Below are positions 1 through 46,451 of a stretch of DNA of 64,000 bases, one piece after another. The position numbers and the translations under genes are program-made. The notes beneath the pieces were generated by a model. That model saw only the letters and a program-made list of their open reading frames with translations. It did not search any database and was not told the DNA's origin. The stretch covers positions 53,683 through 117,682 of the forward strand of contig CAZCCD010000003.1 of NCBI GenBank assembly GCA_964497435.1, given 5' to 3'. The number at the start of each line of letters is the position of its first letter. The first letter of the stretch is position 1. Origin of the DNA: Candidatus Woesearchaeota archaeon. GTDB lineage: Archaea > Nanobdellota > Nanobdellia > Pacearchaeales > GW2011-AR1.

Positions 1-1439
1 AAATCAATTTTTAATTTCATAAATTCCTTGATTTTAATTAAATTATGTTTTTTCCACCATACATATCTCTGCTTTTTAACATTTAATTCTTTTAAGGAAT
101 ATTTCTCAAAAACATTTTTAATCGGGTCTCCGCATAAAAAATCTTCCTCAAAAATTTGAAGATGATCCATTAAATTTATTTCATTAACTTTATTACCTTC
201 AATTGGAAGAGTCCTTGGAACAGCGATGAATGACCTCCCCTCTTTCAAATCAGTTGGTTTAATCTCGATAAGCCCATCTTCCCCTAAAGAAAAAAGAGAG
301 TGATCTTGAGTTACTTTTATCTTTCTTCCTGTAGATGTTAATACTTCATAAATATCTTTTTTAACTTTGTGTTTAATGTATGAGCTTGGTTTAACAAAAA
401 TAATCTTGCCTTTTTCATCAATTGTCATAACTTCTGCATCTATTTTCTTTTCTACAAATTCTTTAATAGTTACATTTCTAATAATTCCTTTTTCCTTCAC
501 AATTATTTTTGAATCACCTGTAACACTGTCTTCAATACTGACGATTCTTGCTTCTGGAGGTATAAAGAATACTATCGCATTCAACAAAGTCGTTTTTCCC
601 GACGCTGTTCCTCCTGTTATAAGTATATTCATCTTATATTCTATTAAAAGCCACAGATAAGCTATCATTTCAGGGCTTAGAGTGTTCATTGACAATAATT
701 TAGGAGGAGTCCAGGGAGTTTTTGTGAATTTTCTAATTGTGAATGTAGGGCCCTTGCTTGTTATGTCTTTAGTGTAAGTTGCATTTACCCTGCTCCCATC
801 AGGAAGACTTCCATCAAGTATAGGATTAGCATATGAAATATATTTCCCGGCTCTTTGTGCAATCTTTTCTATAAAACTAGTAAGCCTTTCAAGGTCATTA
901 AATATAACACTTGTCCTCATATTCCTAAATATTCTATGGACTATGTATATATGATTATCGACTCCATTACACTCTACGTCCTCAACAAAATAATCTTTTA
1001 TAAGAGGATCAACCTCATTATAGCCTACAAAATCTCTAACAATATAATAATAAATTTTAGAGTAAGTTTCGTAACTCATCATTATCCCAAGCTCAACAGC
1101 TATAAGTTTGAATCTCTTGTCAATGTAATCAAGAAGATTATCAAGGCTTTTTTCAACAACCTCCTCAAAGTTAACTAGATCTCTCATTGCAGAAATTATC
1201 TGGTCTTTATATGTTTCTTCTATTTCATTTAATTGAGGTTCTTCAACATCATAAACTAACTCATAGTTTTTAAAATCCCAATAAATATGAGTAAAACAAA
1301 AAGGAGAAACTAAAGCATATCTTACATCTATCTTTGTTTTATCTCGTATTTTTTTTAAATTTGGAACTCTTGGATTAAAGTCCAGAGCTACTCTCGGATA
1401 ACTTTCTATTCCAGGAACCAGTTTACTTTTATTATCCAT
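1..1439 (-). CDS. Type IV pilus/archaellum-family secretion ATPase (FlaI/TadA/VirB11-GspE superfamily), 3'-truncated by window edge, interrupted by an intein
   Basis: Reverse translation from ATG at 1439 gives MDNKSKLVPG...; the conserved ...PDGSRVNATY...GPTFTIRKF region; Walker A GGTASGKTTLLNAI; then ...RIVSIED followed by intein-like sequence (SVTGDSKIIVKEKG..., block-B-like GRKIKVTQDHSLF). Not in ORF track because it runs off the window. Confidence 0.8.
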   Translation of the reverse strand, partial: MDNKSKLVPGIESYPRVALDFNPRVPNLKKIRDKTKIDVRYALVSPFCFTHIYWDFKNYELVYDVEEPQLNEIEETYKDQIISAMRDLVNFEEVVEKSLDNLLDYIDKRFKLIAVELGIMMSYETYSKIYYYIVRDFVGYNEVDPLIKDYFVEDVECNGVDNHIYIVHRIFRNMRTSVIFNDLERLTSFIEKIAQRAGKYISYANPILDGSLPDGSRVNATYTKDITSKGPTFTIRKFTKTPWTPPKLLSMNTLSPEMIAYLWLLIEYKMNILITGGTASGKTTLLNAIVFFIPPEARIVSIEDSVTGDSKIIVKEKGIIRNVTIKEFVEKKIDAEVMTIDEKGKIIFVKPSSYIKHKVKKDIYEVLTSTGRKIKVTQDHSLFSLGEDGLIEIKPTDLKEGRSFIAVPRTLPIEGNKVNEINLMDHLQIFEEDFLCGDPIKNVFEKYSLKELNVKKQRYVWWKKHNLIKIKEFMKLKID

Positions 1440-1977
1440 TTAACACCTCTGTATTTATTAGTGTTTTTCCAGCAACTGTTCCTTTGTTTGCTATCGAAAG
1501 TTTGTAAGGAACAGGAGCTTTATTAAGTGTTTTTGCCTCTTCTTTATTTTGGTATGATATGTTATATACTCCGCTATAGTTGCTTATTAATGTTACTTTT
1601 TTTATCCTTCCTTGATCCTCTGTCCTTGCAATTATACTTCCTACTTGAACGTCTTTTCCAGGCTGTGTAAACTCATGTTTTCCCTCAAGTTCAAAAACAA
1701 TAAAATCCTTCTGGCTATCAATTATTAATTTTCCATCTTTAATCCCTAGGTCAATTATTCTTTTATTTTCAGGCCCGCCTTCTACGACCGAATTGATTAT
1801 TAAGTTTACATCTTCTAACATATTTATACTTTGTTCAATTGTTGCTTTATCCTGTATTTCTTCAACCTTTGGCCTCGCAAATGTCAAGAAAAGGCCTATG
1901 ATTGTTAAAGCTATCAAAGTGTAAATTACAGTTTCAACCCATACCTGACCTTGCTTTCTCTTATATTTATTCACCAT
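1432..1977 (-). CDS. Archaeal type IV pilin-like protein (class III signal peptide)
   Basis: N-terminus MVNKYKRKQGQ|VWVETVIYTLIALTIIGLFL: basic residues, Gly, then a hydrophobic helix, typical of the prepilin peptidase substrate motif. Its stop overlaps the ATPase start by 8 nt. Confidence 0.6.
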   Translation of the reverse strand: MVNKYKRKQGQVWVETVIYTLIALTIIGLFLTFARPKVEEIQDKATIEQSINMLEDVNLIINSVVEGGPENKRIIDLGIKDGKLIIDSQKDFIVFELEGKHEFTQPGKDVQVGSIIARTEDQGRIKKVTLISNYSGVYNISYQNKEEAKTLNKAPVPYKLSIANKGTVAGKTLINTEVLNG

Positions 1978-2219
1978 CTTTTTTATTAAAATAATAAAGA
2001 ATTTGATTATTTAAAGTTAATCAAATTGTTTGACTCATTTTATATAATATTATTTACTTTAGTTTTTACCTTGATTTTTCAGATACTATTATAATCTTTA
2101 ATATAAATTAACTTTAAGGGATATGTTCATTGTAAGTCTTGTTTATTTTTATCATTAATATAAACATCAATTCTTGTATTAAATAGAATTAAGTTTATTT
2201 CATATAACAAAATAAATCT

Positions 2220-2747
2220 TCATATAAAGAAACAATTGTCAACTTCTGTTAATGTATCTGAAGCATCGCACTGGTTTCTGTTAACTACTGGTGCTATTTT
2301 TATTGAATCAGGCCTTCCCATTCCAGCCGAGGTTAAATTATATATGTATGTTAAGCCAGAATTTTTTGCAGGAAGAGCCACTTGAGTGTATGGTTTATTA
2401 TAAGGCCGTACATCAGTTACTGTTTTGTTTGTATAAGTAATCTTAAAACTTTTTGTCTGCCCCACTGCTGATACTGAAACTAAAAGCTCTTGAATTTCTT
2501 TATCTCCTATGTCAACTGAAAAAAGAAGGTAATTTGATGTTGCATTATAACAAGTATACTGGTCATTTAATGATACTTTTCCGAATATATCAAAACAACT
2601 TTCACTTTGTTCTAGCTTTTTTTCAGTTATATTATTTACAACAACCCAAAGCACGCCGACTAGTGTGACAGCAATAAGAATTAAAAGAAGGGTTGCAACT
2701 ACTGTCGCCATTCCTATTTTTTCTTTGTCTTTATTAATTTTTTTCAT
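2220..2747 (-). CDS. Archaeal type IV pilin-like protein (class III signal peptide)
   Basis: N-terminus ...KEKIG|MATVVATLLLILIAVTLVGVLWVVV; the rest is N-glycosylation-sequon-rich (N-x-S/T). Confidence 0.6.
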   Translation of the reverse strand: MKKINKDKEKIGMATVVATLLLILIAVTLVGVLWVVVNNITEKKLEQSESCFDIFGKVSLNDQYTCYNATSNYLLFSVDIGDKEIQELLVSVSAVGQTKSFKITYTNKTVTDVRPYNKPYTQVALPAKNSGLTYIYNLTSAGMGRPDSIKIAPVVNRNQCDASDTLTEVDNCFFI

Positions 2748-3227
2748 CTAAAAAACCTCAATTTCATAACTATTTTGTTTTTCATCGCAAGTATGTGTTC
2801 TTTCCCCTTTTTCAGATGTGCCAAGAAGGACAGGGGTCAATATAATACTTTCGGCAGAGCCAGTATATGAACTTATATCTTCAGAATAGCTTCCTCCTTG
2901 AGCAAGACCTTTGTCAGGCCATGTAGATATGTCTTCTAAATCCATAGACTCTCTGCTTCCTCCTCCAACTATTTTTATCTTCATTCCAAAAATAGGGATG
3001 TTTCCGTCGTTAACAATAGACAACTCTCCATTGTAGTAATCAGCCGTAAACTCTACTTTTTGGCATGTTAACTCAATATTTTCTCCTCCGAATTTTGTTA
3101 TTGTTTCTCCTCCTATTCTCCTAAACCATAAAAATATAATCAATGCAATTACAACAACCATTGCCACTAAAAGCACTGTAGCAATAACAGGAGAGACACC
3201 TTTTTTTTCACTCCTATTTTTTTTCAT
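2748..3227 (-). CDS. Archaeal type IV pilin-like protein (DUF361-like class III signal peptide)
   Basis: N-terminus ...SEKKG|VSPVIATVLLVAMVVVIALIIF, the canonical archaeal pilin pattern. Confidence 0.7.
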   Translation of the reverse strand: MKKNRSEKKGVSPVIATVLLVAMVVVIALIIFLWFRRIGGETITKFGGENIELTCQKVEFTADYYNGELSIVNDGNIPIFGMKIKIVGGGSRESMDLEDISTWPDKGLAQGGSYSEDISSYTGSAESIILTPVLLGTSEKGERTHTCDEKQNSYEIEVF

Positions 3228-3264
3228 TGTTTTAAAAAGGTATCCTTATTTTTAAATTTTTATA

Positions 3265-3825
3265 TTAACTTGAACAGCTTAATATTTCTTTGATTTTTTT
3301 CTCTGCTCCACAATTTGCAAAATCACGCTTATTTTCTCTTTCCTGCCATCTTGCAGGTGTTATTTCTAATGTTGATATAGGGCCTACATTATTTAAATTG
3401 TAAATATGAGTTATTTCGTTTCCAGGATAAAAAGAGTTGTTGTTTCCTTCAGCAAAAAGCACAGCTTCCCTGAATTTATATACATTTCCAGTATTAACTA
3501 GACTATCTATTAAACTTATTGTTGCCTGTTTTTCAGGATTGTCACTGGCCTTTATTATATATCCAGCAATATCAAACCTTCCATTATTGACTAGAGTTAT
3601 ATTCAGCACGCTGCCTGTGCAGTTGTAAAAATAACTTTTAACTCCTATAGATGTTCCATCAGGACATTCAATCTTTTCTTGAGGAACATAAGATTTCATC
3701 CACATATAGAGTATTCCGCCCATTACAACAGCTATGGCTACTAAAAGCACATATCCTATTAGCTCGCTTACACCGCTTCTACTTTTCCAAAATACCTTAG
3801 TTTGTCGCAACATAAATTTCACCAT
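3265..3825 (-). CDS. Archaeal type IV pilin-like protein
   Basis: N-terminus ...KSRSG|VSELIGYVLLVAIAVVMGGILY. Confidence 0.6.
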   Translation of the reverse strand: MVKFMLRQTKVFWKSRSGVSELIGYVLLVAIAVVMGGILYMWMKSYVPQEKIECPDGTSIGVKSYFYNCTGSVLNITLVNNGRFDIAGYIIKASDNPEKQATISLIDSLVNTGNVYKFREAVLFAEGNNNSFYPGNEITHIYNLNNVGPISTLEITPARWQERENKRDFANCGAEKKIKEILSCSS

Positions 3826-4333
3826 TTATTTCTTGAGATATTATGAAATAAAAATTTTCTCCTTTTCTTATTTCAAAAGTGTAATTTGTATCATATTTCT
3901 GGACATTTATTACATACTTAACAGGGCTCCCATATGAAGTTATACTTGATGGAATTGTTATCTTGTTTCCATTATCATATGTAAATGTATCCATATTAAT
4001 TACATCGGGGCCTATTGGTGGTGTTGTCCTGTTTCCTACTATGTATATTATTTCAACATCTTCTCTGACATAACTCGAGAAATTCCTTGTGAAGCTATTC
4101 CACGAATATACTCCAGTATATGCTCCTTGATTTAATATTTTCCCACTTTCAACACCCAATTCTTCAGCAAGTTTTTCTACTCTTGTATTGATTATTTTTT
4201 TTGAAGTGTTTGTTATTAATATAAGGCCTGCCATGAGAGCTATTATGGCCATTGCAGCAATTAAATAAATCTGACCTCTTTTATTCGACCACGCCTGGAC
4301 AAATTGACCTCCTTTATCCTCTTTTTTAATCAT
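3797..4333 (-). CDS. Archaeal type IV pilin-like protein
   Basis: N-terminus ...SNKRG|QIYLIAAMAIIALMAGLILI (KRGQ motif). First gene of a co-directional pilin-pilin-pilin-pilin-pilin-ATPase array. Confidence 0.65.
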   Translation of the reverse strand: MIKKEDKGGQFVQAWSNKRGQIYLIAAMAIIALMAGLILITNTSKKIINTRVEKLAEELGVESGKILNQGAYTGVYSWNSFTRNFSSYVREDVEIIYIVGNRTTPPIGPDVINMDTFTYDNGNKITIPSSITSYGSPVKYVINVQKYDTNYTFEIRKGENFYFIISQEINGEIYVATN

Positions 4334-4337
4334 TAAT

Positions 4338-4375
4338 AAAATAAGAAAATGTATTATTTAAAGTTAATTAAAAAT
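4338..4375 (-). promoter_or_regulatory. Putative archaeal TATA-box promoter for the pilin operon
   Basis: Minus-strand TTTAAATAAT about 25-30 nt upstream of the ATG at 4333. Confidence 0.3.
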
Positions 4376-4442
4376 AAAATAAATATAGAGACAAGAACAA
4401 TTTGAATTAATTAAAACTAAAAATCATTTAATCTGAGTTTAC

Positions 4443-4702
4443 GTAGACTCAGAGGTTTGCTGCTTAAAACACCAAAAAGTTTTTCTTATTCTTTCTCGGT
4501 TTTGCGACCCGCCAAGCACCTTAACAAATGTTTAGGGCTGCTCCGATCAAGGCCTGACCCATTTTGCATCTGCAAGATCAAGACGGACAAAACGTCAACG
4601 TCCGAATAAGGGCTTACTGATATTCCAATCACGCCCCTCCTTACAGTCTGCCATAAAGCCCATTTGCAAGCAGCGGAGGGCTAACCCGCCAACCTAGTCT
4701 AC
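4443..4702 (-). ncRNA. Signal recognition particle RNA (SRP/7S RNA), archaeal type (boundaries approximate)
   Basis: A GC-rich island in AT-rich DNA. The minus strand has GGGUCAGGCC...GGAGCAGCC, matching the conserved helix-8 motif GUCAGGUCC/GGAAGCAGCC. The 5' GUAGACU pairs with the 3' AGUCUAC to form a terminal helix. A TATA-like TTTTTAAATAAA sits about 30 nt upstream on the minus strand. Confidence 0.65.
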
Positions 4703-4734
4703 ATTTTTACTTTAAGAATGTTTATTTAAAAACC

Positions 4735-4947
4735 TTACTCTTGAGGCGATCTGCCTGTTGAGTTTCCAAATCTATAGGAAACATACCTCTCATAGAGAGA
4801 AGGATCTCGTGGAGGCAAAGGATTTGAATGAATTGTCGTAAACAATCCTGTTGGATTAAGCTCTCCAAGCCTGTCAATTATGCTTTTCCCTATTGTTATG
4901 CTATCTACAGATTCATCTTCCTTTCTGTCGTATTCTTCATTTATCAT
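4735..4947 (-). CDS. Hypothetical small protein (uncertain)
   Basis: 70-aa ORF of non-repetitive composition directly upstream of the SRP RNA promoter; no recognisable motif. Confidence 0.3.
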   Translation of the reverse strand: MINEEYDRKEDESVDSITIGKSIIDRLGELNPTGLFTTIHSNPLPPRDPSLYERYVSYRFGNSTGRSPQE

Positions 4948-5203: not shown

Positions 5204-5971
5204 TTACTTTATTGGAACAACTTTGTTATTAACAATTATCTGTTTTGGAACCTTACCTTTAGATTTTGAAAAATAATTCCATATTAATATAATTGCAAGT
5301 ATTATAATTATTAATCCAAACGACCTTGCTGGTGATTTAATAAAGTTATTTATACCAGAAAGGAAAGCACCTGTTATGCTATCTGTTACACTTGATTCAC
5401 ATTCCTTAAATGTTGCTGGTTTCAATGTTTCTGTCCCGCAGGCATTTTGATCTTCACAAGTTCTTGTCCCGCATTGGCCTTCTACATTACTCCATTTACT
5501 ACATGACCAGCTTTCTACACATGCTGTTGAGATTCCAGGCTCGTTATTTGAAGATATTGTGATGACAGAACCTCCACCGCCATTGCCACCATTTCCATTA
5601 CCTCCACCTCCACCGCCATTACCCCCATTGCCACCATTTCCATTAGGAGGCAATTCTCCACAACTTCTTGTGTTGAATGGTGGATCACAGTTTTTAGGCC
5701 TCAAATTTTCAGTATCGCATAAAGGATTTGTTTGGATGCAGATAAATGTCTTTTGATTATTCTCCTCACATGTCGTTTCATCCCAGAAACTTGAACTCCA
5801 ATCTTCTTGGCATCCTGCAAAAACTCCTCCGCCAGTGCTTACTTTTAAAAATCCATGCTCTGTTTCAGCGATTGAAAATCCAAATCCTCCAATAGCTAAC
5901 GCTAAAATAAACATCACAATTGCAAATTTTTTTTGTTTCATTTCCATCAGAACGTATTTAATTTTACTCAC
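5204..5971 (-). CDS. Cys-rich secreted, membrane-anchored protein with Gly/Asn-rich linker
   Basis: N-terminal signal/TM, many Cys, an NGNGGNGGNGGGGGGNGNGG linker, C-terminal TM helix. Its start overlaps the stop of the giant gene by 8 nt. Confidence 0.6.
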   Translation of the reverse strand: MSKIKYVLMEMKQKKFAIVMFILALAIGGFGFSIAETEHGFLKVSTGGGVFAGCQEDWSSSFWDETTCEENNQKTFICIQTNPLCDTENLRPKNCDPPFNTRSCGELPPNGNGGNGGNGGGGGGNGNGGNGGGGSVITISSNNEPGISTACVESWSCSKWSNVEGQCGTRTCEDQNACGTETLKPATFKECESSVTDSITGAFLSGINNFIKSPARSFGLIIIILAIILIWNYFSKSKGKVPKQIIVNNKVVPIK

Positions 5972-8900
5972 AATCTAAATCTTCAATATCTATATCTCCA
6001 TCACAATCATTATCTATTGAATCATCACAAACTTCAGTTTCAGGTACACACTCTGGCTCAGGCTCTTCACATATGTTTGTCAAAGATTCAATCCAGTATT
6101 CTAGCTCATGAACCCCAGGTCCTATCGCACTCATGTCTTCTGAATCAAGCTCAAGGTGCAATTCAAATTCTGTCCTGCCATTTATCTCACTGCATTGTAA
6201 CTGAAGGAATTCAGCATCTGTTATAAACCAGCATAATCCTGTTTCAGGGTCCCAGAAATCACCAACTTCTCCACATTCTTGTTCTGTTAAGCCAGATTCA
6301 TGCCTTAATCCAACTGTGGCACTCTCTCCTGTTTCAGGATTTGTTATTATAGCATTCATATCCCCAGGAGTCACAAGGCCTTCTATCTTATTTAGCCAGA
6401 ACTTAATGCTGTTGTCTCCCCTCATGCAAATATTGTAAGTAAAGTCACAAATACCGCCTTCTTCAGGGTCAATTCCGCATATTGCAGGGGTTATAAATTC
6501 AACAAAAATACCATCTAAAAGAGTTTCTTCAACTTCTTTACAATTTTCATTTCCATTACCATCTTCTGCACAGACCTTAAGAATATAATCTCCAGCAGGA
6601 AGTTCTTTGTTCATTATACCTTCCCATGTTACTGTCTGTCCATAATGCACAATATTTAAGTCAATTTCTCTAAGTGGTTCGTCTCCTTCATCTACAGGAG
6701 TTGCCCATAATTCAGCCCATGCTCTTATTACGCCTGATTTTTCATCATCTATTGAAGCAACTATTTTCTGGACACACATTTCTATTTCTCTTTCGTTTGA
6801 ATTAGGATTCCTTATTATTATTTCAGGACCTGCAGAGTCAACATTATCCCATTCAATGTTTGCTTCTCCAACATTTCCTAGGGCATCTCTGCAGAACCAT
6901 TCAATATTATGTAGTGAATCTTCCTGGAAGTTAAATCCATAACCATCTTCTTCTGTTAAAGAACAACAGAAAGGAACCCAATCTTGTGATTCTTCACTAT
7001 ACAATTCTTCAATTTCTCCTCCAAATTGTTTGCAATATTGCTCTGTTAAGAATGGAGGAGTTTCTTGATTATCGTCATCCCATGATATTCTATAACAAAG
7101 AGATTCATGGTCAACAGGATGTGGTTCTCCATCTTTACAGCTTAAAGTTATTGGTGTTTCACCTGTGACAAACCATGCAGGCCATTCTCCTTGAGGTCCG
7201 CATAATTCTTCATCACCTACACAAGGATATTTTGGCTCTCCAACTTCTTTATCTGTTAAAGGAGCTGTATTATCAACAAACACACACTGTTTATTCACTC
7301 TTTCTGTTTTTTCAACATTATCAACACTGTAGTATTCAATTAGGTGGCATGATTCCTCGGTTTTATAGAATGGAATGCCATGATAAGTGTTCCATTCACC
7401 TCGTCCAACAGCTTGCTGGCAAACATCTTGATTCAAACAGTTCTCATCATCAACAAGAGTATTTCTCCAGAAAGTTTCACTTATTCCAGAAGGATGAGGT
7501 GCCTGATCTCCACCATCAAGGTAAACAGCTGTTTCAGAGCTTATCCATGCAGGGAACCATTCTTCTTTTTCTTCATCAAACTCACACATTTCTTTTAAGC
7601 ATAATTCAAGTGCTTCACCATCTTCTCCAGCTTCATATCTGCACCAATCCTGACAAGTAAAGTAAGGACCATCAAATGACTTTGTTGTAACTGGTGGTGT
7701 TTTATCAACAATAAATGTTTCTTCATCAACTACTCTATTTCCTAGAGCATCTTCACACTCTATTACTAGATTATGGCTTGATTCTTCTGGGAATTGAACT
7801 ATAAACTCACTTCCAAGTTCATCATCGCCAGGTATAACATTTCCACCATTAACAGTGTAACTCCATTCACAAGTCACATCATTTACAGGATGAGGTTGAG
7901 GATCTTCAACACTAACATGAATTTCAGTAACACCATCAATATAACATACATCTTGGCTACCCGGTTTTGGAGGGCATTGTCCGTAACTAGGGCCCACAAT
8001 TTCTTTAGTTATTTTAGGAGGCACTGAATCAACAATATCAATTTCTCTATGTGGTTCTTCAGCTGTTCCATCTGAATTTCCAAGAGCATCAACACAATAC
8101 CATTCTAAAACATGTCTTGAATCTTCTTCTTTGTAAATTGTAACTTCTCCATCTTCTTCAACCCAATATTCAGGAGGCCGGCTTCCCTCTAAATAATCTC
8201 TCCAGTAAAGAGTCACATCATCTATTGGATGTGGTTCTTGATCAGCACAAGATAGAGTTATTGGAGTTTGTTGAGTTATGAACCAATCACACTGTCCATC
8301 TTGAGGTTCTGGTGGTTGACCGCCAATTCCACATGTACCTTCTTCAATTTCATAAGCTTTTAAATGATTATTCTCGAACATTCTTACCCAGATAGCACTC
8401 ACTGGGAAAGTAGCATCATCACACTCTAAATCTTCAGGCCTGTCTCCTGGTGCAGAAAATTCTCCGAGATTTGTCTTTGAGTCTTTGTCAAATCTAAATA
8501 TTTTATCCCCACCATTATTTGCTAAATATAAATCTTCTCCTCCAACAGCAATACCGCTATTCCCAAAAGGAATTCCTGGGGCAAAGCTATCAACAACTGA
8601 ACCAGTTAAATTTAATTCATAAACAGTTGGTCCAACATCACGACTAAACCATATTCTATCATCGCTGTCAGAATTTGGATCGTTTTCGTCATATGCTAAA
8701 CCATCACAAAAATGGAAATGATCTCCTGGAAGTGTTTCTATTAGTGTTACATCACCATTTAATTCTAATTTATATAACTTATTTGGAACACCATTTGAAC
8801 AAGCCCATATTACATTTCTCTTTGCATCATAACCCATTGCACCTAAATTTATTGCCGGACTTGTAGCCAACTCTCCTATTTCTGAGCCATCGTCTGGATT

Positions 8901-10544
8901 AATTAATTTTATAACTGTTGTTTCATCAGGAACATACAAAACTGTGCCATCAAAAGCTACTCCGACATTACTGAAAGCACCAACATCATCTGACATTGTT
9001 ATATCTCTAAGAAGATCTCCAGGTGAATTATGCTCTTCGTTATTTCCATTTTCTCCGTTAATATTATCTCCTCCATTTCCATTTTCCTCACAAGCAACTT
9101 TTGGCTCTCCAACTTCTTTCTTTGTGATTGGTGGCAAAGCATCAACAATATCTAATTCAAAGTGATGCCTTTCTTCATTAGTACAACCATCACTTGCCCA
9201 GTATTCAATCAAATGGCAGGAATCATCTATTAAATTCAAGTGAACATCTTCATTAGGCAATCCTTGCCCAGAATCTTTAAGAGTCCATACAGGTTCTCTT
9301 ACAGTGCAATCTTCACTAAACCATATTCTCCAATTTATTACAGGATTGTCAGAGATTTCATGGTCAGGAGTGTCGGGGTCTTCGGCAGAAAGCCAGATTT
9401 CTGTTCCAGGCTTAACATAATAGCAACCATCTGTTAAAGCATTGCCATTTGCTGTTGTATAATCACAATTAAAAGAAACCTCGTCTGCAAAATCAATTTT
9501 CTTTTCTGTTACTGGAGGAACAGTATCTTTTATGAAAGAAACAATAGGATTGAATGTGAATTTACCCCAGTTTTCTTGTCCGTCTTTTCCATGTAACTGG
9601 ACATAATGTGTTCCCTCACTTAAATCATCTAAATCAATAGTAGCTTCAACATCTTCACATCTTTCATTGAATGAGCCATCAGAAGCAGTCATTGGAATTC
9701 CCCGCCAATTTATTGGATTATCTTCATCAATAAAATATTCAGCAGCTTGTATTCTTGACTCATCATCACAGACATTTCCAGATACAATAGGATCATCACC
9801 ACAAACTAAAAGTTCTTCTGGGTTACATTCATCATTTAACTTAATTCCATTTTCATGTTGCAAATTATCTCCTTCTTCACATGTTGGGTAAAAAGGAGGC
9901 AGGCAGTCAACATCTATTCTTATTGTTTCACAATCTCCCCAATTTCCAGCAACATCTTGTCCTCTAACATGTACATTAATGCTTCCGTCTTGTGTACCCA
10001 CTCCGCTTTTTGTTACAGCTTCAACCAATGAATTATAAAGCCCGTCTGTTGCATTAAGTGGATTTCCACTCCCTTCTGCTCCGCAAGTTGCTCCTCCAAG
10101 GAAATATTCAGCTTCTGCAATTGCAGAACACTGATCAGTCTCTAAGGCATCTATTTTTATCTTGCAGGCATCAACAACTTTTACAGCAGTTAAATCAGAA
10201 GTAACAGGGCCAGTTTCGTCAGGAAACTCATTAAAAACACAACCCTGTTGAACATCACAAGAAAAATCTCCACACTGATCTCCAGGTTCACAAAGAGAAT
10301 CATCAGGAGTATAAACACATCCTGTTTGTTCGTTACAAGAATCAACTGTACAAGAAACACCATCGTCACAAACTATAGGAGTATTCACACACCCACCACC
10401 CTCAACACATTCATCTATTGTGCAGGCATTTCCGTCGTCACAGTTCTGTGGAGAACAAGCACTCACAGAAGAACCAAAATTAATTATCCCAATTATAAAT
10501 ATCAGCAAAACTAAAGAAATTTTCACGTCTTTTCTTAAACCCAT
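5964..10544 (-). CDS. Giant secreted Cys-rich surface protein (1526 aa) with CxxxNxCTxDxC repeats, beta-propeller-like region and C-terminal MopE-like CxDxDNDCDG motif
   Basis: Signal peptide MGLRKDVKISLVLLIFIIGIINFGSSVSA; repeats CDDGNACTIDEC, CDDGVSCTVDSC; C-terminus CDDSIDNDCDGDIDIED. Confidence 0.75.
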   Translation of the reverse strand: MGLRKDVKISLVLLIFIIGIINFGSSVSACSPQNCDDGNACTIDECVEGGGCVNTPIVCDDGVSCTVDSCNEQTGCVYTPDDSLCEPGDQCGDFSCDVQQGCVFNEFPDETGPVTSDLTAVKVVDACKIKIDALETDQCSAIAEAEYFLGGATCGAEGSGNPLNATDGLYNSLVEAVTKSGVGTQDGSINVHVRGQDVAGNWGDCETIRIDVDCLPPFYPTCEEGDNLQHENGIKLNDECNPEELLVCGDDPIVSGNVCDDESRIQAAEYFIDEDNPINWRGIPMTASDGSFNERCEDVEATIDLDDLSEGTHYVQLHGKDGQENWGKFTFNPIVSFIKDTVPPVTEKKIDFADEVSFNCDYTTANGNALTDGCYYVKPGTEIWLSAEDPDTPDHEISDNPVINWRIWFSEDCTVREPVWTLKDSGQGLPNEDVHLNLIDDSCHLIEYWASDGCTNEERHHFELDIVDALPPITKKEVGEPKVACEENGNGGDNINGENGNNEEHNSPGDLLRDITMSDDVGAFSNVGVAFDGTVLYVPDETTVIKLINPDDGSEIGELATSPAINLGAMGYDAKRNVIWACSNGVPNKLYKLELNGDVTLIETLPGDHFHFCDGLAYDENDPNSDSDDRIWFSRDVGPTVYELNLTGSVVDSFAPGIPFGNSGIAVGGEDLYLANNGGDKIFRFDKDSKTNLGEFSAPGDRPEDLECDDATFPVSAIWVRMFENNHLKAYEIEEGTCGIGGQPPEPQDGQCDWFITQQTPITLSCADQEPHPIDDVTLYWRDYLEGSRPPEYWVEEDGEVTIYKEEDSRHVLEWYCVDALGNSDGTAEEPHREIDIVDSVPPKITKEIVGPSYGQCPPKPGSQDVCYIDGVTEIHVSVEDPQPHPVNDVTCEWSYTVNGGNVIPGDDELGSEFIVQFPEESSHNLVIECEDALGNRVVDEETFIVDKTPPVTTKSFDGPYFTCQDWCRYEAGEDGEALELCLKEMCEFDEEKEEWFPAWISSETAVYLDGGDQAPHPSGISETFWRNTLVDDENCLNQDVCQQAVGRGEWNTYHGIPFYKTEESCHLIEYYSVDNVEKTERVNKQCVFVDNTAPLTDKEVGEPKYPCVGDEELCGPQGEWPAWFVTGETPITLSCKDGEPHPVDHESLCYRISWDDDNQETPPFLTEQYCKQFGGEIEELYSEESQDWVPFCCSLTEEDGYGFNFQEDSLHNIEWFCRDALGNVGEANIEWDNVDSAGPEIIIRNPNSNEREIEMCVQKIVASIDDEKSGVIRAWAELWATPVDEGDEPLREIDLNIVHYGQTVTWEGIMNKELPAGDYILKVCAEDGNGNENCKEVEETLLDGIFVEFITPAICGIDPEEGGICDFTYNICMRGDNSIKFWLNKIEGLVTPGDMNAIITNPETGESATVGLRHESGLTEQECGEVGDFWDPETGLCWFITDAEFLQLQCSEINGRTEFELHLELDSEDMSAIGPGVHELEYWIESLTNICEEPEPECVPETEVCDDSIDNDCDGDIDIEDLDCE

Positions 10545-37026: not shown

Positions 37027-37722
37027 TTATATCCATTTCATTAGAATTGCCAAGCCGACCAAAAACAATAGTATACCTGAAATCAAATGCAGCATTCTTA
37101 CATGACTGTCTTTCCAGCCTGTGACTTCATCAACTTTTGCAAAGCCGAAGTAAATTATCAAGGTTATTATCATCATTGGTAAAACAAAAATAATATTATA
37201 ATAAACAAGCCATGGCAATGCTTTTAAGATTCCTAATTCAAATAACAAACCAGAGGCAATTATATAAGGACCCATTGTGCAAGGAAGGAGAAATAATGTT
37301 AGAACAAAACCCAAAACAAAAGCCCCCCATGGTGATGCAATTCTTTCAGTCATTTTTTTTGCCCGCGGTCTTAAAAATAAAGGCATCTCTGTCGCAAAGC
37401 TTCCTTTTTTATAATTAATAGAATCTTTTATATTCAAGGCTCCGAGAATCATCGATATTATCGCCAATCCATTATAGATTATTTTTGAATTCTCTCTTAA
37501 AAATTCTGCGAATATCTTAAAGAACTGCACAATTATAAGGCCATAAAACATGTATCCTAAAAAAACAGCGAGAATGAATGCAGCTCCTGCGTAAAGGACT
37601 TTTTTCCTTTTTCCAGGATTTTTAATTAAGACAGTCATTAAAACCATCGCGAGTATAGCTATCTCGCATGGATTCACAGAGTCAGCAAGTGCTAACGATG
37701 TAATCTTAATGAAGTCTGTCAT
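37027..37722 (-). CDS. ccdA: Cytochrome c-type biogenesis/thiol:disulfide interchange membrane protein CcdA/DsbD family
   Basis: Multi-TM; conserved Cys in TM1 (ADSVNPCEIAIL) and TM4 (LLPCTMGPYI), the two-Cys CcdA signature. Confidence 0.7.
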   Translation of the reverse strand: MTDFIKITSLALADSVNPCEIAILAMVLMTVLIKNPGKRKKVLYAGAAFILAVFLGYMFYGLIIVQFFKIFAEFLRENSKIIYNGLAIISMILGALNIKDSINYKKGSFATEMPLFLRPRAKKMTERIASPWGAFVLGFVLTLFLLPCTMGPYIIASGLLFELGILKALPWLVYYNIIFVLPMMIITLIIYFGFAKVDEVTGWKDSHVRMLHLISGILLFLVGLAILMKWI

Positions 37723-38006: not shown

Positions 38007-38351
38007 TCAACATCCTGTCAAAGTCTTTAATCTATCAATGCTTTGCACTCCAACATACTGCTGTCCATTAATAACCCATGTCGGAGTTCCTTTAATATCC
38101 TGACATTTATCTCTCTCATAGAAACAATCTACTTTATCTAGGTATTTGTAATAGCCTCCAAACATATCTTTTTGAGTTTCACAGTGAGGGCATCCTAATT
38201 GAACATACAAAGTTGATTTTTTACCTATGCATTCAGCAACTTCTTGCGTTGTTTGAGCTTTAGGACCTTTTACAAGAATAAATATAGCAATTACAACAAC
38301 ACCAATAATTACCAACCAGTTTATCCAACCACTCTTTTTTTTCATTAACAT
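38007..38351 (-). CDS. Membrane-anchored thioredoxin-like thiol-disulfide oxidoreductase
   Basis: N-terminal TM; LGCPHCETQ CxxC active site. Confidence 0.65.
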   Translation of the reverse strand: MLMKKKSGWINWLVIIGVVVIAIFILVKGPKAQTTQEVAECIGKKSTLYVQLGCPHCETQKDMFGGYYKYLDKVDCFYERDKCQDIKGTPTWVINGQQYVGVQSIDRLKTLTGC

Positions 38352-44498: not shown

Positions 44499-46451
44499 CT
44501 ACCTTCTTCTAAATACGACAATCAGAATCAATAACAAAACAATTCCTATTCCAAAAACAGGCAAGAGTATTAACCAAATGTTGCTAACTTCACCTAGACT
44601 GAAATTGTTTTTTGGACTTTCTGTTTTTTTATCTTGGTCAGTAACTTTTATCGCTGGTTCTTCTAATTTAATAGTTGGAGTGAAAGCGCCCGTCTTTTCT
44701 TTACCAGAATTATCGACTAATAAATTTGAATCAAGAGTGTTTCTTATTACATCATTATCCTTTTTATCATCTTTCTTTTTATCAATATCAAAATCTCTTG
44801 TTTCTGAAATTCCTTTATTTCCATGAATATCAACACATTCTATTCTCCAATTGTAACCCTCATCGCTGTCTAACTCTTGCCTGAATATATTTTCTACATC
44901 TTTTTCAATAACATTATCTAAATCCTCAAGATCTCCGTCGATAATTAAACTACAACTTGCTATATTTGACTCATCAGAAACTTTATACCTGAAAGTTATA
45001 GTCTTATCGCTTTTTGATGTTTCAAAATCTTCATTGTCGTCTGGATCGAGTAAAGTAATTGTTGGAGGAGTTGTGTCTTTGGATAATTCTTCTTCAATCG
45101 CGTTTTCAAATACTTCATATGGTTGTGCTCCGCTAATTAATCTTCCGTTAACAAAAAATGCTGGCACACCTGCAACACCTTTACTAATACCCTCATTAAT
45201 ATCATCTTCTACTCTTGACCCAATATTACTGTTATAAAAACAACTACTAAATTTATTCATATCAAGCCCTATTTCCTCGGCATAATTTTTTAAATCTGTG
45301 TCTGATAAGGCATTTTGATTTTTGTACAGAAAATCTATGTACTCAAAAAACTTATTTTGATATGAGGCACATTCTGCAGCTATTGCTGAGTTTTTGGCGT
45401 GAGGATGAATGCTCTTTAAAGGAAAATGCTTAAGAACTAATTTTACTTTTCCTGTATCTATATAATTTTTCTTTATCAACGGGAAAGTGTTGTTGTACCA
45501 TCTTGCATCAAAAGGACCTTCAAAGTCAGTGAACATTTCTAAAGTAACCGGCGCAGTTTTTTGTCCTAATGTTCTTTGAAGGTCAGTTCTAGGAGGATGT
45601 TCCACTTCAAAAGGCAAATCACTAGGATATTTCTCTAAATATGCTTCTACTAATGGTGATGGAAATACCAACTCTTCTGCTGAATCTTGGATTGCTAGAA
45701 CGAAAATTATTAAATTTTCATGAGGCCAGATTATAGCTATAATACCCTCATCTTTAAAAGTGTAAACGAAATTCTCATTAATCTTTTCTAATGTTAATTC
45801 TTCTTCACCTTCTTTAAGAAATTCTTTTAAGGACAAGCTGTCTTCAAACTCAATAACATTCACCCCATAAAGATTACCATCACCTTTGTCATAGTATGAA
45901 AAATACATTTTAAGAATTCCTTCATCAGATTCTGGAATTTCAATCATTGCAGATTTATCATATTTGTAATCGTCTATATCTTCTATTATCATGACCTCTC
46001 TAATTTCTGTTAGATCTACGTAAAAATCAGCTTTTGCATTTCCAGAATTTTCAAATTCATCTTCACATGTTACGCTTATTATGTAATTTTCTCCTTCTTG
46101 TGTTTCTTTAAGATTTTTAATTTGTTGCATATGGAGTTTTCCTCCAGTTATTTCCATTTCAACTGGGGGCATTCCCCCTCCATAGTATGGACCACGAAAG
46201 CCAAGGCTATACAAACAAATAGCATTTTCATCTGTTTCAACAACTAAAGATGTAAAATCTCCTTTTACTGTTGAGCCGTTTTCTGGCAAGATTATTTCTA
46301 TTATTGGAGAAACCTCTTCTGGAGGTGATGTTTCAAAATCTTCATACGTATAATTAAAAGTTTTATAAAGATCTCTATCCAAAGCACTTACAACCCCAGC
46401 TAGAATTATCACCCCTAAAATTGCAAGGAACAAGATACTATTTTTTGCCAT
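44499..46451 (-). CDS. Secreted, C-terminally membrane-anchored protein with DsbA-like thioredoxin-fold domain lacking the CxxC active site
   Basis: Signal peptide; the DsbA-like region has DFEGPFDARWY where DsbA carries the CPxC motif (recalled here as DFQCPFC); C-terminal TM WLILLPVFGIGIVLLLILIVVF. Confidence 0.55.
   Translation of the reverse strand: MAKNSILFLAILGVIILAGVVSALDRDLYKTFNYTYEDFETSPPEEVSPIIEIILPENGSTVKGDFTSLVVETDENAICLYSLGFRGPYYGGGMPPVEMEITGGKLHMQQIKNLKETQEGENYIISVTCEDEFENSGNAKADFYVDLTEIREVMIIEDIDDYKYDKSAMIEIPESDEGILKMYFSYYDKGDGNLYGVNVIEFEDSLSLKEFLKEGEEELTLEKINENFVYTFKDEGIIAIIWPHENLIIFVLAIQDSAEELVFPSPLVEAYLEKYPSDLPFEVEHPPRTDLQRTLGQKTAPVTLEMFTDFEGPFDARWYNNTFPLIKKNYIDTGKVKLVLKHFPLKSIHPHAKNSAIAAECASYQNKFFEYIDFLYKNQNALSDTDLKNYAEEIGLDMNKFSSCFYNSNIGSRVEDDINEGISKGVAGVPAFFVNGRLISGAQPYEVFENAIEEELSKDTTPPTITLLDPDDNEDFETSKSDKTITFRYKVSDESNIASCSLIIDGDLEDLDNVIEKDVENIFRQELDSDEGYNWRIECVDIHGNKGISETRDFDIDKKKDDKKDNDVIRNTLDSNLLVDNSGKEKTGAFTPTIKLEEPAIKVTDQDKKTESPKNNFSLGEVSNIWLILLPVFGIGIVLLLILIVVFRRR

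Follow-up and report, generated by a model that had tools for sequence, protein, structure and literature searches.

Gene array, leader motif and operon organization

We analyzed a 64,000-nucleotide stretch of DNA from Candidatus Woesearchaeota archaeon (GenBank assembly GCA_964497435.1, contig CAZCCD010000003.1, positions 53,683 to 117,682), hereafter called the window, for a type IV pilus-like locus that lies at its beginning. The window has a G+C content of 31% and carries archaeal housekeeping genes. An earlier note, made from the sequence without database searches, had described five consecutive minus-strand open reading frames (ORFs) from position 4333 to 1432 as pilin-like genes that lead into an assembly ATPase gene. 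An ORF check found all five at these positions, and the N-termini quoted in that note were exact. We refer to these genes as P1 to P5. P1 (3797-4333, 178 amino acids) encodes a prepilin-like protein with the leader ...SNKRG|QIYLIAAMAII, the bar marking the predicted cleavage position. P2 (3265-3825, 186 amino acids, leader ...KSRSG|VSELIGYVLLVAIAVV) and P4 (2220-2747, 175 amino acids, leader ...KDKEKIG|MATVVATLLLILIAV) encode archaeal pilin-like proteins that are paralogs of each other and of P3 (2748-3227, 159 amino acids, leader MKKNRSEKKG|VSPVIATVLLVAMVVV), a canonical archaeal type IV pilin. P5 (1432-1977, 181 amino acids, leader MVNKYKRKQG|QVWVETVIYTLIAL) is a pilin-like protein as well. 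The secretion ATPase ORF follows on the same strand (1-1439), is of the T2SSE/FlaI type, and runs off the window edge.

For comparison we used a set of 80 related loci from species-level genomes of Pacearchaeota, Woesearchaeota, and Nanoarchaeota, which are referred to by L numbers such as L004. There were 243 tblastn-positive genomes; the colinear operon is present in at least 80 species-level genomes and kept in hundreds of tiny DPANN archaea. The gene order in these loci is P1-P2-P3-P4-P5-ATPase-D1-D2-D3-D4, in which D1 is TadB-like, D2 is TadC-like, and D3 and D4, downstream of these two, represent further pilin-like families. The ten-gene order is complete in 31 loci, and a contig end can account for each of the partial ones; an eleventh operon gene that recurs in the 80 loci was not found. 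The tight pairs P1-P2, P3-P4, P5-ATPase, D1-D2, and D3-D4 are kept.

In the window, P1 and P2 overlap by 29 nucleotides, P2 and P3 are separated by 37 nucleotides, P3 and P4 abut, and a gap of 242 nucleotides (1978-2219) separates P4 from P5. The earlier note had called the array compact; the genes are indeed consecutive, but they are not evenly packed, as the gap ahead of P5 shows. The median distance at this position is 67 nucleotides in the relatives and exceeds 200 nucleotides in 8 of 68 of them, and the minus strand of the gap contains no ORF of 40 or more amino acids. The 8-nucleotide overlap between P5 and the ATPase start at position 1439 (ATGGATAA), also claimed earlier, is real, and P5 is predicted from it to be translationally coupled to the ATPase. 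Besides the gap, the earlier note had overlooked an intein in the Asp box of the ATPase and a signal recognition particle (SRP) RNA gene upstream of P1, both described below.

The N-termini of P1 to P5 each consist of a short basic leader, a glycine, and a hydrophobic helix of about 20 residues. We applied a home-made rule for class III signal peptides (K/R at -2 or -3, G/A/S at -1, then 22 uncharged hydrophobic residues, and nothing hydrophobic earlier) to the 92 window ORFs of at least 80 amino acids. Eight were positive and these included all of P1 to P5, while the other three resemble Sec signals or membrane anchors. The rule by itself is not specific, yet five neighboring positives appear far beyond chance. 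We then aligned the orthologs, which were found for each of the P1 to P5 families in 56 to 75 of the 80 loci, anchoring the alignment on family-specific motifs so that positions -4 to -1 lay outside the anchoring pattern. All seven pilin-like families (P1 to P5, D3, and D4), represented by about 50-75 species each, have N-K-[KR]-G at -4 to -1, right before the hydrophobic segment. The residue at -1 is glycine in 74-96% of the sequences, depending on the family, and nearly always alanine or serine in the rest, and the leaders upstream of NK[KR]G are of variable length among relatives. According to hhalign, P2, P3, and P4 are paralogous and the globular parts of the seven families are otherwise unrelated. 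Because one boundary motif is common to families with such different globular parts, it looks like a single class III signal-peptidase site with a predicted cleavage behind the glycine. Hence, the class III signal peptides that had been proposed for all five window proteins hold up, with both the rule and the conservation of the G-1/hydrophobic pattern in orthologs. The cut sites needed a correction: for P1 and P5 we predict cleavage at G|Q, and not behind the glutamine as claimed, because this is the register shared by all seven families; the invariant glutamate of P5 therefore falls at position +5. The residue at +1 differs among the seven families (Q, V/I/L, S/T, or W), which suggests that the peptidase would have a broad specificity.

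The window itself contains no T2SSF platform protein and stops inside the ATPase gene. The earlier statement that neither a prepilin peptidase nor a platform is seen in the window was borne out by a screen for GxGD motifs in proteins with multiple transmembrane segments and by a Pfam search of the window membrane proteins. That the platform may lie beyond position 1 is supported by synteny, as two T2SSF genes follow the ATPase gene in relatives. D1 and D2 contain one T2SSF domain each; in alignments D1 corresponds to the N-terminal half of FlaJ and D2 to the C-terminal half, and the two are therefore predicted to form a split platform of the TadB/TadC type. The suggestion that the peptidase gene would be nearby fared less well, since, in the 80 loci, GxGD proteins with multiple transmembrane segments are neither encoded in the operon nor found repeatedly within 10 kb of it. 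The sole such candidate within 10 kb, a protein with eight transmembrane segments in L056, looks unrelated. The peptidase gene probably sits elsewhere in the genome, as such genes usually do, because published surveys report flaK in metagenome-assembled genomes of Woesearchaeota (PMC5994134, PMC11606122). Exact-protein matches of this genome were limited to three short Logan contigs, which end at or before the same point as the window. No small stand-alone pilin genes were found elsewhere in the window.

The three additional ORFs flagged by our rule, and the lack of a curated family match for P1, P4, and P5, would also fit a reading in which the array consists of unrelated surface proteins beside an ATPase, with N-termini that serve as ordinary Sec signals or as membrane anchors. 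Such proteins would, however, hardly share, across seven families and dozens of species, a near-invariant NK[KR]G placed precisely where the hydrophobic segment begins, behind leaders of variable length. Moreover, the predicted helices contain invariant acidic residues (E+5 in P5 and E+6 in D4), as the polar or charged residues inside the helix of type IV pilins, the synteny with the ATPase and the T2SSF platform genes is fixed, and P3 has Pilin_N matches in its family and a pilin fold (see below). We regard this reading as extremely improbable.

Assembly ATPase and pilin-like subunits

Matches to Pfam T2SSE and NCBIfam FlaI confirmed the earlier assignment of the truncated ORF as an assembly ATPase. 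Its residues 1-305 (525-1439, minus strand) form the N-extein of a FlaI/PilB-family ATPase, which contains GGTASGKTT as its Walker A motif and stops at the Asp box, IVSIED; this 305-residue part matches T2SSE and scores 228 bits with the FlaI model. Directly past IVSIED, at residue 306, an intein starts (Pfam Intein_splicing, 45 bits; TIGR01445, 42 bits). Its first 174 residues (SVTGDSKIIV...) occupy positions 1-524 on the minus strand, where the window edge cuts through it. The identical insertion site is occupied by the same allele in six of the 80 relatives (L023, L024, L030, L036, L048, and L050). In these, the intein is 485 amino acids long, contains a LAGLIDADG_3 domain (69 bits), has Ser as residue 1 with Thr at +1, and ends with ...VHN|TRELNL; relatives without the intein have an uninterrupted ATPase of about 520 amino acids.

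The ATPase is 65-77% identical to those of the 80 relatives, which are metagenome-assembled genomes named Pacearchaeota, Woesearchaeota, or Nanoarchaeota, and this places the source organism with these DPANN archaea. We used the intein-free ortholog of L004 for comparison with characterized ATPases. It matches T2SSE with 121.7 bits and, among solved structures, is closest to Archaeoglobus fulgidus GspE (2OAP; 356 bits, E 2.7e-105), followed by FlaI (269 bits) and CpaF (167 bits). Its best NCBIfam model is FlaI (NF058587) with 374.8 bits, below the equivalog cutoff of 550, and the second-best is the bindosome ATPase BasE with 197 bits against a cutoff of 1000.

P3 is the best-supported pilin of the window. 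It scores 37.6 bits (cutoff 20) with TIGR02537, the NCBIfam model of the archaellin/type IV pilin N-terminus. The Pfam family Pilin_N (PF07790) is matched by 69 of the 70 members of the P3 family, and the window P3 itself stays under the Pfam cutoff with 13.1 bits. A profile of the family matches the pilus subunit of Pyrobaculum calidifontis (8FK7, E 1.8e-6) and also Iho670. Structure prediction of globular domains had been proposed earlier as a check on the array, and for P3 it gave a fold that matches solved archaeal pili: the AlphaFold (AF2) model, with a predicted local distance difference test score (pLDDT) of 88.3, consists of an N-terminal helix and an immunoglobulin-like sandwich, and its best fold match in the PDB is the type IV pilus subunit of Haloferax volcanii (8FJ5, E 2e-4, probability 1.00), followed by 8FK7. 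The orthologs of P3 are labeled 'flagellin-like protein' by the Joint Genome Institute (JGI). We consider P3 the best candidate for the major subunit, because it is a pilin of the canonical kind, its structural match is the best of all, and its family is annotated as flagellin-like. Genes for 'archaellin type IV' have been reported among the most highly expressed genes of Woesearchaeota (PMC11606122).

The label of the P3 orthologs raises the possibility that the locus specifies an archaellum, the rotary organelle for swimming, in divergent form, as is implied by the KEGG-style flaB/flaI/flaJ annotation of Woesearchaeota and by the fla genes listed for them (PMC5994134, PMC11606122). That FlaI is the best NCBIfam model of the ATPase and that D1 and D2 match FlaJ models is in line with this. 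However, the FlaI score remains under the equivalog cutoff, the nearest solved ATPase is the non-archaellar GspE of A. fulgidus, FlaJ would be split over two genes, and the best fold matches of P3 are pili. Neither the eight scanned operon proteins of L004 nor the five window pilin-like proteins matched FlaH/KaiC-like proteins, FlaX, or FlaC/D/E. The archaellin family Arch_flagellin (PF01917) has weak matches in only 4 of the 70 P3-family members (best E 0.003) and in 2 of 80 members of the P5 family (best E 0.005), and none in P1 to P5 of the window. An archaellum is therefore very unlikely.

P2 reaches 20.8 bits with Pilin_N (cutoff 25.2) and 19.2 bits with TIGR02537 (cutoff 20). In hhalign comparisons, the probabilities among P2, P3, and P4 are 97-98.5% over about 140 columns (98.2% for P2-P3 and 98.5% for P3-P4). 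Orthologs of P4 are present in 68 of the 80 loci. P2 and P4 contain four cysteines each, P3 contains two, which are both invariant in its family, and P4 has four N-X-S/T sequons. Elsewhere in the window, three minus-strand genes encode two DsbA/thioredoxin-like exported proteins and a polytopic membrane protein (44499-46451, 38007-38351, and 37027-37722). By eye, the membrane protein has a DsbD/CcdA-like N-terminal cysteine motif; its sole Pfam match is SfLAP, at the cutoff. Together, these three proteins are consistent with the formation of disulfides outside the cytoplasm, and the paired cysteines of P2 to P4 would fit such an activity.

In some relatives, the genes of the P2, P4, and D4 types are two to four times longer, for example at L011 5903-7267, L023 11774-13510, and L035 7545-8621. 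The extra modules in these variants are cysteine-rich DUF4215 repeats, LVIVD repeats, or a right-handed beta-helix, and the encoded proteins look like modular adhesive pilins.

P1 and P5 have no curated family match in Pfam or NCBIfam. P1 orthologs occur in 56 of the 80 loci with the consensus QFYLIAA, glycine at -1 in 96%, and glutamine at +1 in 100% of them. P5 is the most conserved of the five, being found in 75 loci with 36-61% identity, and its residues Q+1, W+3, E+5, and Y+9 are invariant. The P5 model (pLDDT 88.6) has the shape of a lollipop, a single helix of about 60 residues with a beta domain behind it; Foldseek gave no significant match for it in the PDB. The P5 protein has weak matches to bacterial type IV pilins, and its family comprises 979 clusters at 50% identity (E <= 1e-3). 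One JGI record of a homolog carries the label UPF0333. We dropped an assignment of P5 to the corresponding Pfam class III signal family (DUF361/UPF0333), as none of the 80 P5-family members matches it at E <= 1; P1 and P5 of the window do not match it either. Hence, P5 is pilin-like by its architecture, motif, and context, and not by demonstrated homology.

Upstream RNA gene, putative promoters, and neighboring genes

An archaeal SRP (7S) RNA gene (Rfam RF01857) lies at 4441-4704 on the minus strand, 107 nucleotides upstream of P1 and in the same orientation. A search of the whole 64 kb at the Rfam gathering threshold returned nothing, and the gene surfaced in an E-value search: the match covers the full-length model with 83.4 bits (gathering score 96.5) and E 6e-19, and falls in a G+C-rich stretch. 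In relatives, such genes lie for example at L013 5814-6077, L016 1835-2097, L017 6934-7197, and L024 5455-5719 (plus strand), and we surveyed the relatives by nhmmer with five such RNAs. An SRP RNA is present at most 1.5 kb upstream of P1 and on the operon strand in 33 of the 46 loci with enough upstream sequence. Anywhere within 10 kb, it was found in 46 of the 80 loci, and 45 of these 46 matches are on the operon strand. We regard the SRP RNA gene as a conserved neighbor of the operon, outside the set of pilus components. Three ORFs of 48-51 amino acids that overlap or abut it (4486-4632, minus strand; 4457-4609, plus strand; 4722-4877, minus strand) are almost certainly not genes. A 70-amino-acid ORF just upstream (4735-4947, minus strand) had no family match, and ARAGORN found no tRNA genes in the 64 kb.

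Between the SRP RNA gene and P1, the 15-mer TTAACTTTAAATAAT, which contains the TATA-like sequence TTTAAATA, is located at 4353-4367 on the minus strand, 20-34 nucleotides upstream of the P1 start codon, and may be a promoter. A second copy, a possible internal promoter, lies within the P4-P5 gap (2006-2020, minus strand), 29-43 nucleotides upstream of the P5 start codon. The 15-mer occurs exactly twice in the 64 kb, compared with 0.15 occurrences expected by chance. The TTTAWATA box is not conserved upstream of P1 (2 of 52) or P5 (4 of 69) in relatives. Because of this, the idea of two promoters leans on the duplicated 15-mer, and we assign twin promoters to the two copies with low confidence.

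Farther upstream of the SRP RNA gene, the minus strand encodes a 255-amino-acid Gly/Asn-rich membrane protein (5204-5971) and a 1526-amino-acid cysteine-rich secreted protein (5964-10544) with Dictyostelium-type repeats and hints of immunoglobulin-like domains. These two proteins were considered as members of the pilus locus and are probably not, since the protein-coding neighbors upstream of P1 vary among relatives.

Proposed filament and relation to known systems

Overall, an archaeal type IV filament (pilus) operon of ten genes, of a sort typical for DPANN archaea of the Pacearchaeota/Woesearchaeota type, very probably has its promoter-proximal half in the window. By homology with characterized type IV filament systems, the prepilins would be inserted into the membrane, and a signal peptidase of the class III, PibD/FlaK type, encoded elsewhere, would cut behind the conserved glycine of NK[KR]G. 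The ATPase, active once its intein splices out, would act via the split platform to pull mature subunits from the membrane and stack their N-terminal helices into a filament. P3 would most likely be the major subunit, P2 and P4 could serve as alternative or minor subunits with the possibility of extra surface modules in relatives, and P1, P5, D3, and D4 may be subunits present in few copies, used to prime, cap, or anchor the filament, with P5 made in step with the ATPase. The filament would most likely be used for attachment to surfaces or host cells, because P2, P4, and D4 of relatives carry modules as in modular adhesive pilins; an adhesive or host-contact role is plausible. The earlier proposal of adhesive filaments in episymbionts gains indirect support from these modular variants and from the published expression of 'archaellin/type IV' genes in Woesearchaeota (PMC11606122).

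Several points weigh against this interpretation. Neither the window nor, as a recurrent gene, the 10 kb around the operon in the 80 relatives encodes an A24 prepilin peptidase. The C-terminus of the ATPase and the genes for the platform, D3, and D4 lie outside the window, so that the completeness of the operon in this genome is predicted from synteny. P1, P4, and P5 lack a significant match to any curated family, as noted above. Finally, the cleavage of the prepilins, the formation of a filament, the identity of the major subunit, and the adhesive role are predictions from sequence.

The same machinery might instead build a short pseudopilus or surface scaffold for secretion, bindosome-like substrate capture, or DNA uptake, with the seven conserved subunits forming a defined heteromeric structure. 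Fixed sets of pseudopilins are typical of the bacterial type II secretion system (T2SS) and Com systems, while adhesive pilin arrays evolve fast, and here seven single-copy pilin-like families are kept in a fixed order in at least 80 species, along with an unusually conserved ATPase. DPANN archaea rely on imported building blocks, and substrate-scavenging roles have been proposed for archaeal type IV filament machineries (bioRxiv 10.64898/2026.04.22.720090). On the other hand, no substrate-binding-protein domain was detected in the five window pilin-like proteins or in the two tested downstream proteins of L004, and the score of the BasE bindosome model is far under its cutoff. P3 matches subunits of real extended archaeal pili, and the modular pilins of relatives, with their beta-propeller or beta-helix domains, fit adhesion. 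We therefore consider a pseudopilus unlikely and favor an extended type IV filament.

A more far-reaching proposal would be that the operon specifies a distinct filament subtype specific to Pacearchaeota/Woesearchaeota, in which a Pilin_N-type major subunit is built on a defined priming or tip complex of the four novel subunits P1, P5, D3, and D4, P5 being a pilin with a bacterial-style Glu5 that is made in step with the motor. The filament would serve an episymbiont as its host-attachment organelle, and the linkage to the SRP RNA would be functional, for example through co-expression with the membrane-targeting machinery. We put this forward tentatively and consider it rather unlikely.

Pacearchaeota and Woesearchaeota are abundant, uncultured, and tiny archaea that are thought to live attached to other cells. 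A groundwater study described type IV pilus components as missing from DPANN genomes (bioRxiv 10.1101/2020.05.14.094862), and other surveys have filed such genes as flagella (PMC5994134, PMC11606122). The locus is a genuine archaeal type IV filament locus of an already known kind, and we infer any function past 'type IV filament'. Our analysis contributes the strict order of ten genes kept in many species, the NK[KR]G site common to the subunits, predicted structures, and the finding of both the intein and the linkage to the SRP RNA gene; it also identifies P5 as a large family that lacks annotation and has a Glu5 of the bacterial style. The colinear operon, with seven recognizable subunits and a very conserved motor, offers a concrete template for annotators. 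Experimenters gain defined targets in P3 as the likely filament subunit, the large P5 family, and the NK[KR]G cleavage site. The result refines the existing understanding without overturning it.

Among known systems, the locus resembles the DPANN 'dark matter' islands, which, as described by Makarova, Wolf and Koonin (2019; PMC6393860, Fig. 2A), combine a FlaI-type ATPase, TadB, and TadC with neighboring unannotated signal-peptide proteins predicted as pilins. It also resembles bacterial minor-pilin sets (GspH-K of the T2SS, ComGD-GG, and FimU/PilVWX of type IVa pili) in that several conserved low-copy pilin-like proteins are encoded with the motor, and P5 shares with bacterial pilins the N-terminal helix of about 60 residues and the invariant Glu5. 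Searches found no homology between the two groups in sequence, nor a significant one in fold, and the analogy is functional only.

With the Epd pilus of Methanococcus maripaludis, which belongs to System 1, and with the derived bacterial Tad pilus, the locus has in common two platform genes (as seen in relatives) and many pilins. The Q+1 of P1 and P5 and the E+5 of P5 fit QxSxE, the motif described in Pfam for the class III signal family DUF361. The locus differs from Epd/System 1 in that the 80 P5-family members do not match DUF361, no EppA-type peptidase is encoded in the locus, and the window contains no small pilin of about 70 amino acids without a globular domain. Systems with two platform genes have been assigned to System 1 or to subsystem 4A, for which DPANN members were noted (bioRxiv 10.64898/2026.04.22.720090).

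The locus is also like the euryarchaeal PilA-type pili (PilA/PilB3C3 of H. volcanii; clade 2), as it has Pilin_N-type pilins and the P3 model best matches 8FJ5. It is unlike them in that all pilins are encoded in cis as a fixed seven-gene set, four of the seven pilin families have no detectable relatives in curated libraries, and the platform is encoded by two genes in relatives, while System 2 platforms were described as single genes (bioRxiv 10.64898/2026.04.22.720090). According to Makarova et al. 2016 (PMC4858521), some nanoarchaea belong to clade 2, and two tadC-like genes are present in many of its loci. Among solved structures, A. fulgidus GspE (2OAP) comes closest to the ATPase, which is a proxy for clade placement. 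As a tentative subtype, clade 2 as defined in that paper would suit both the GspE-like ATPase and the subunits of the Pilin_N type.

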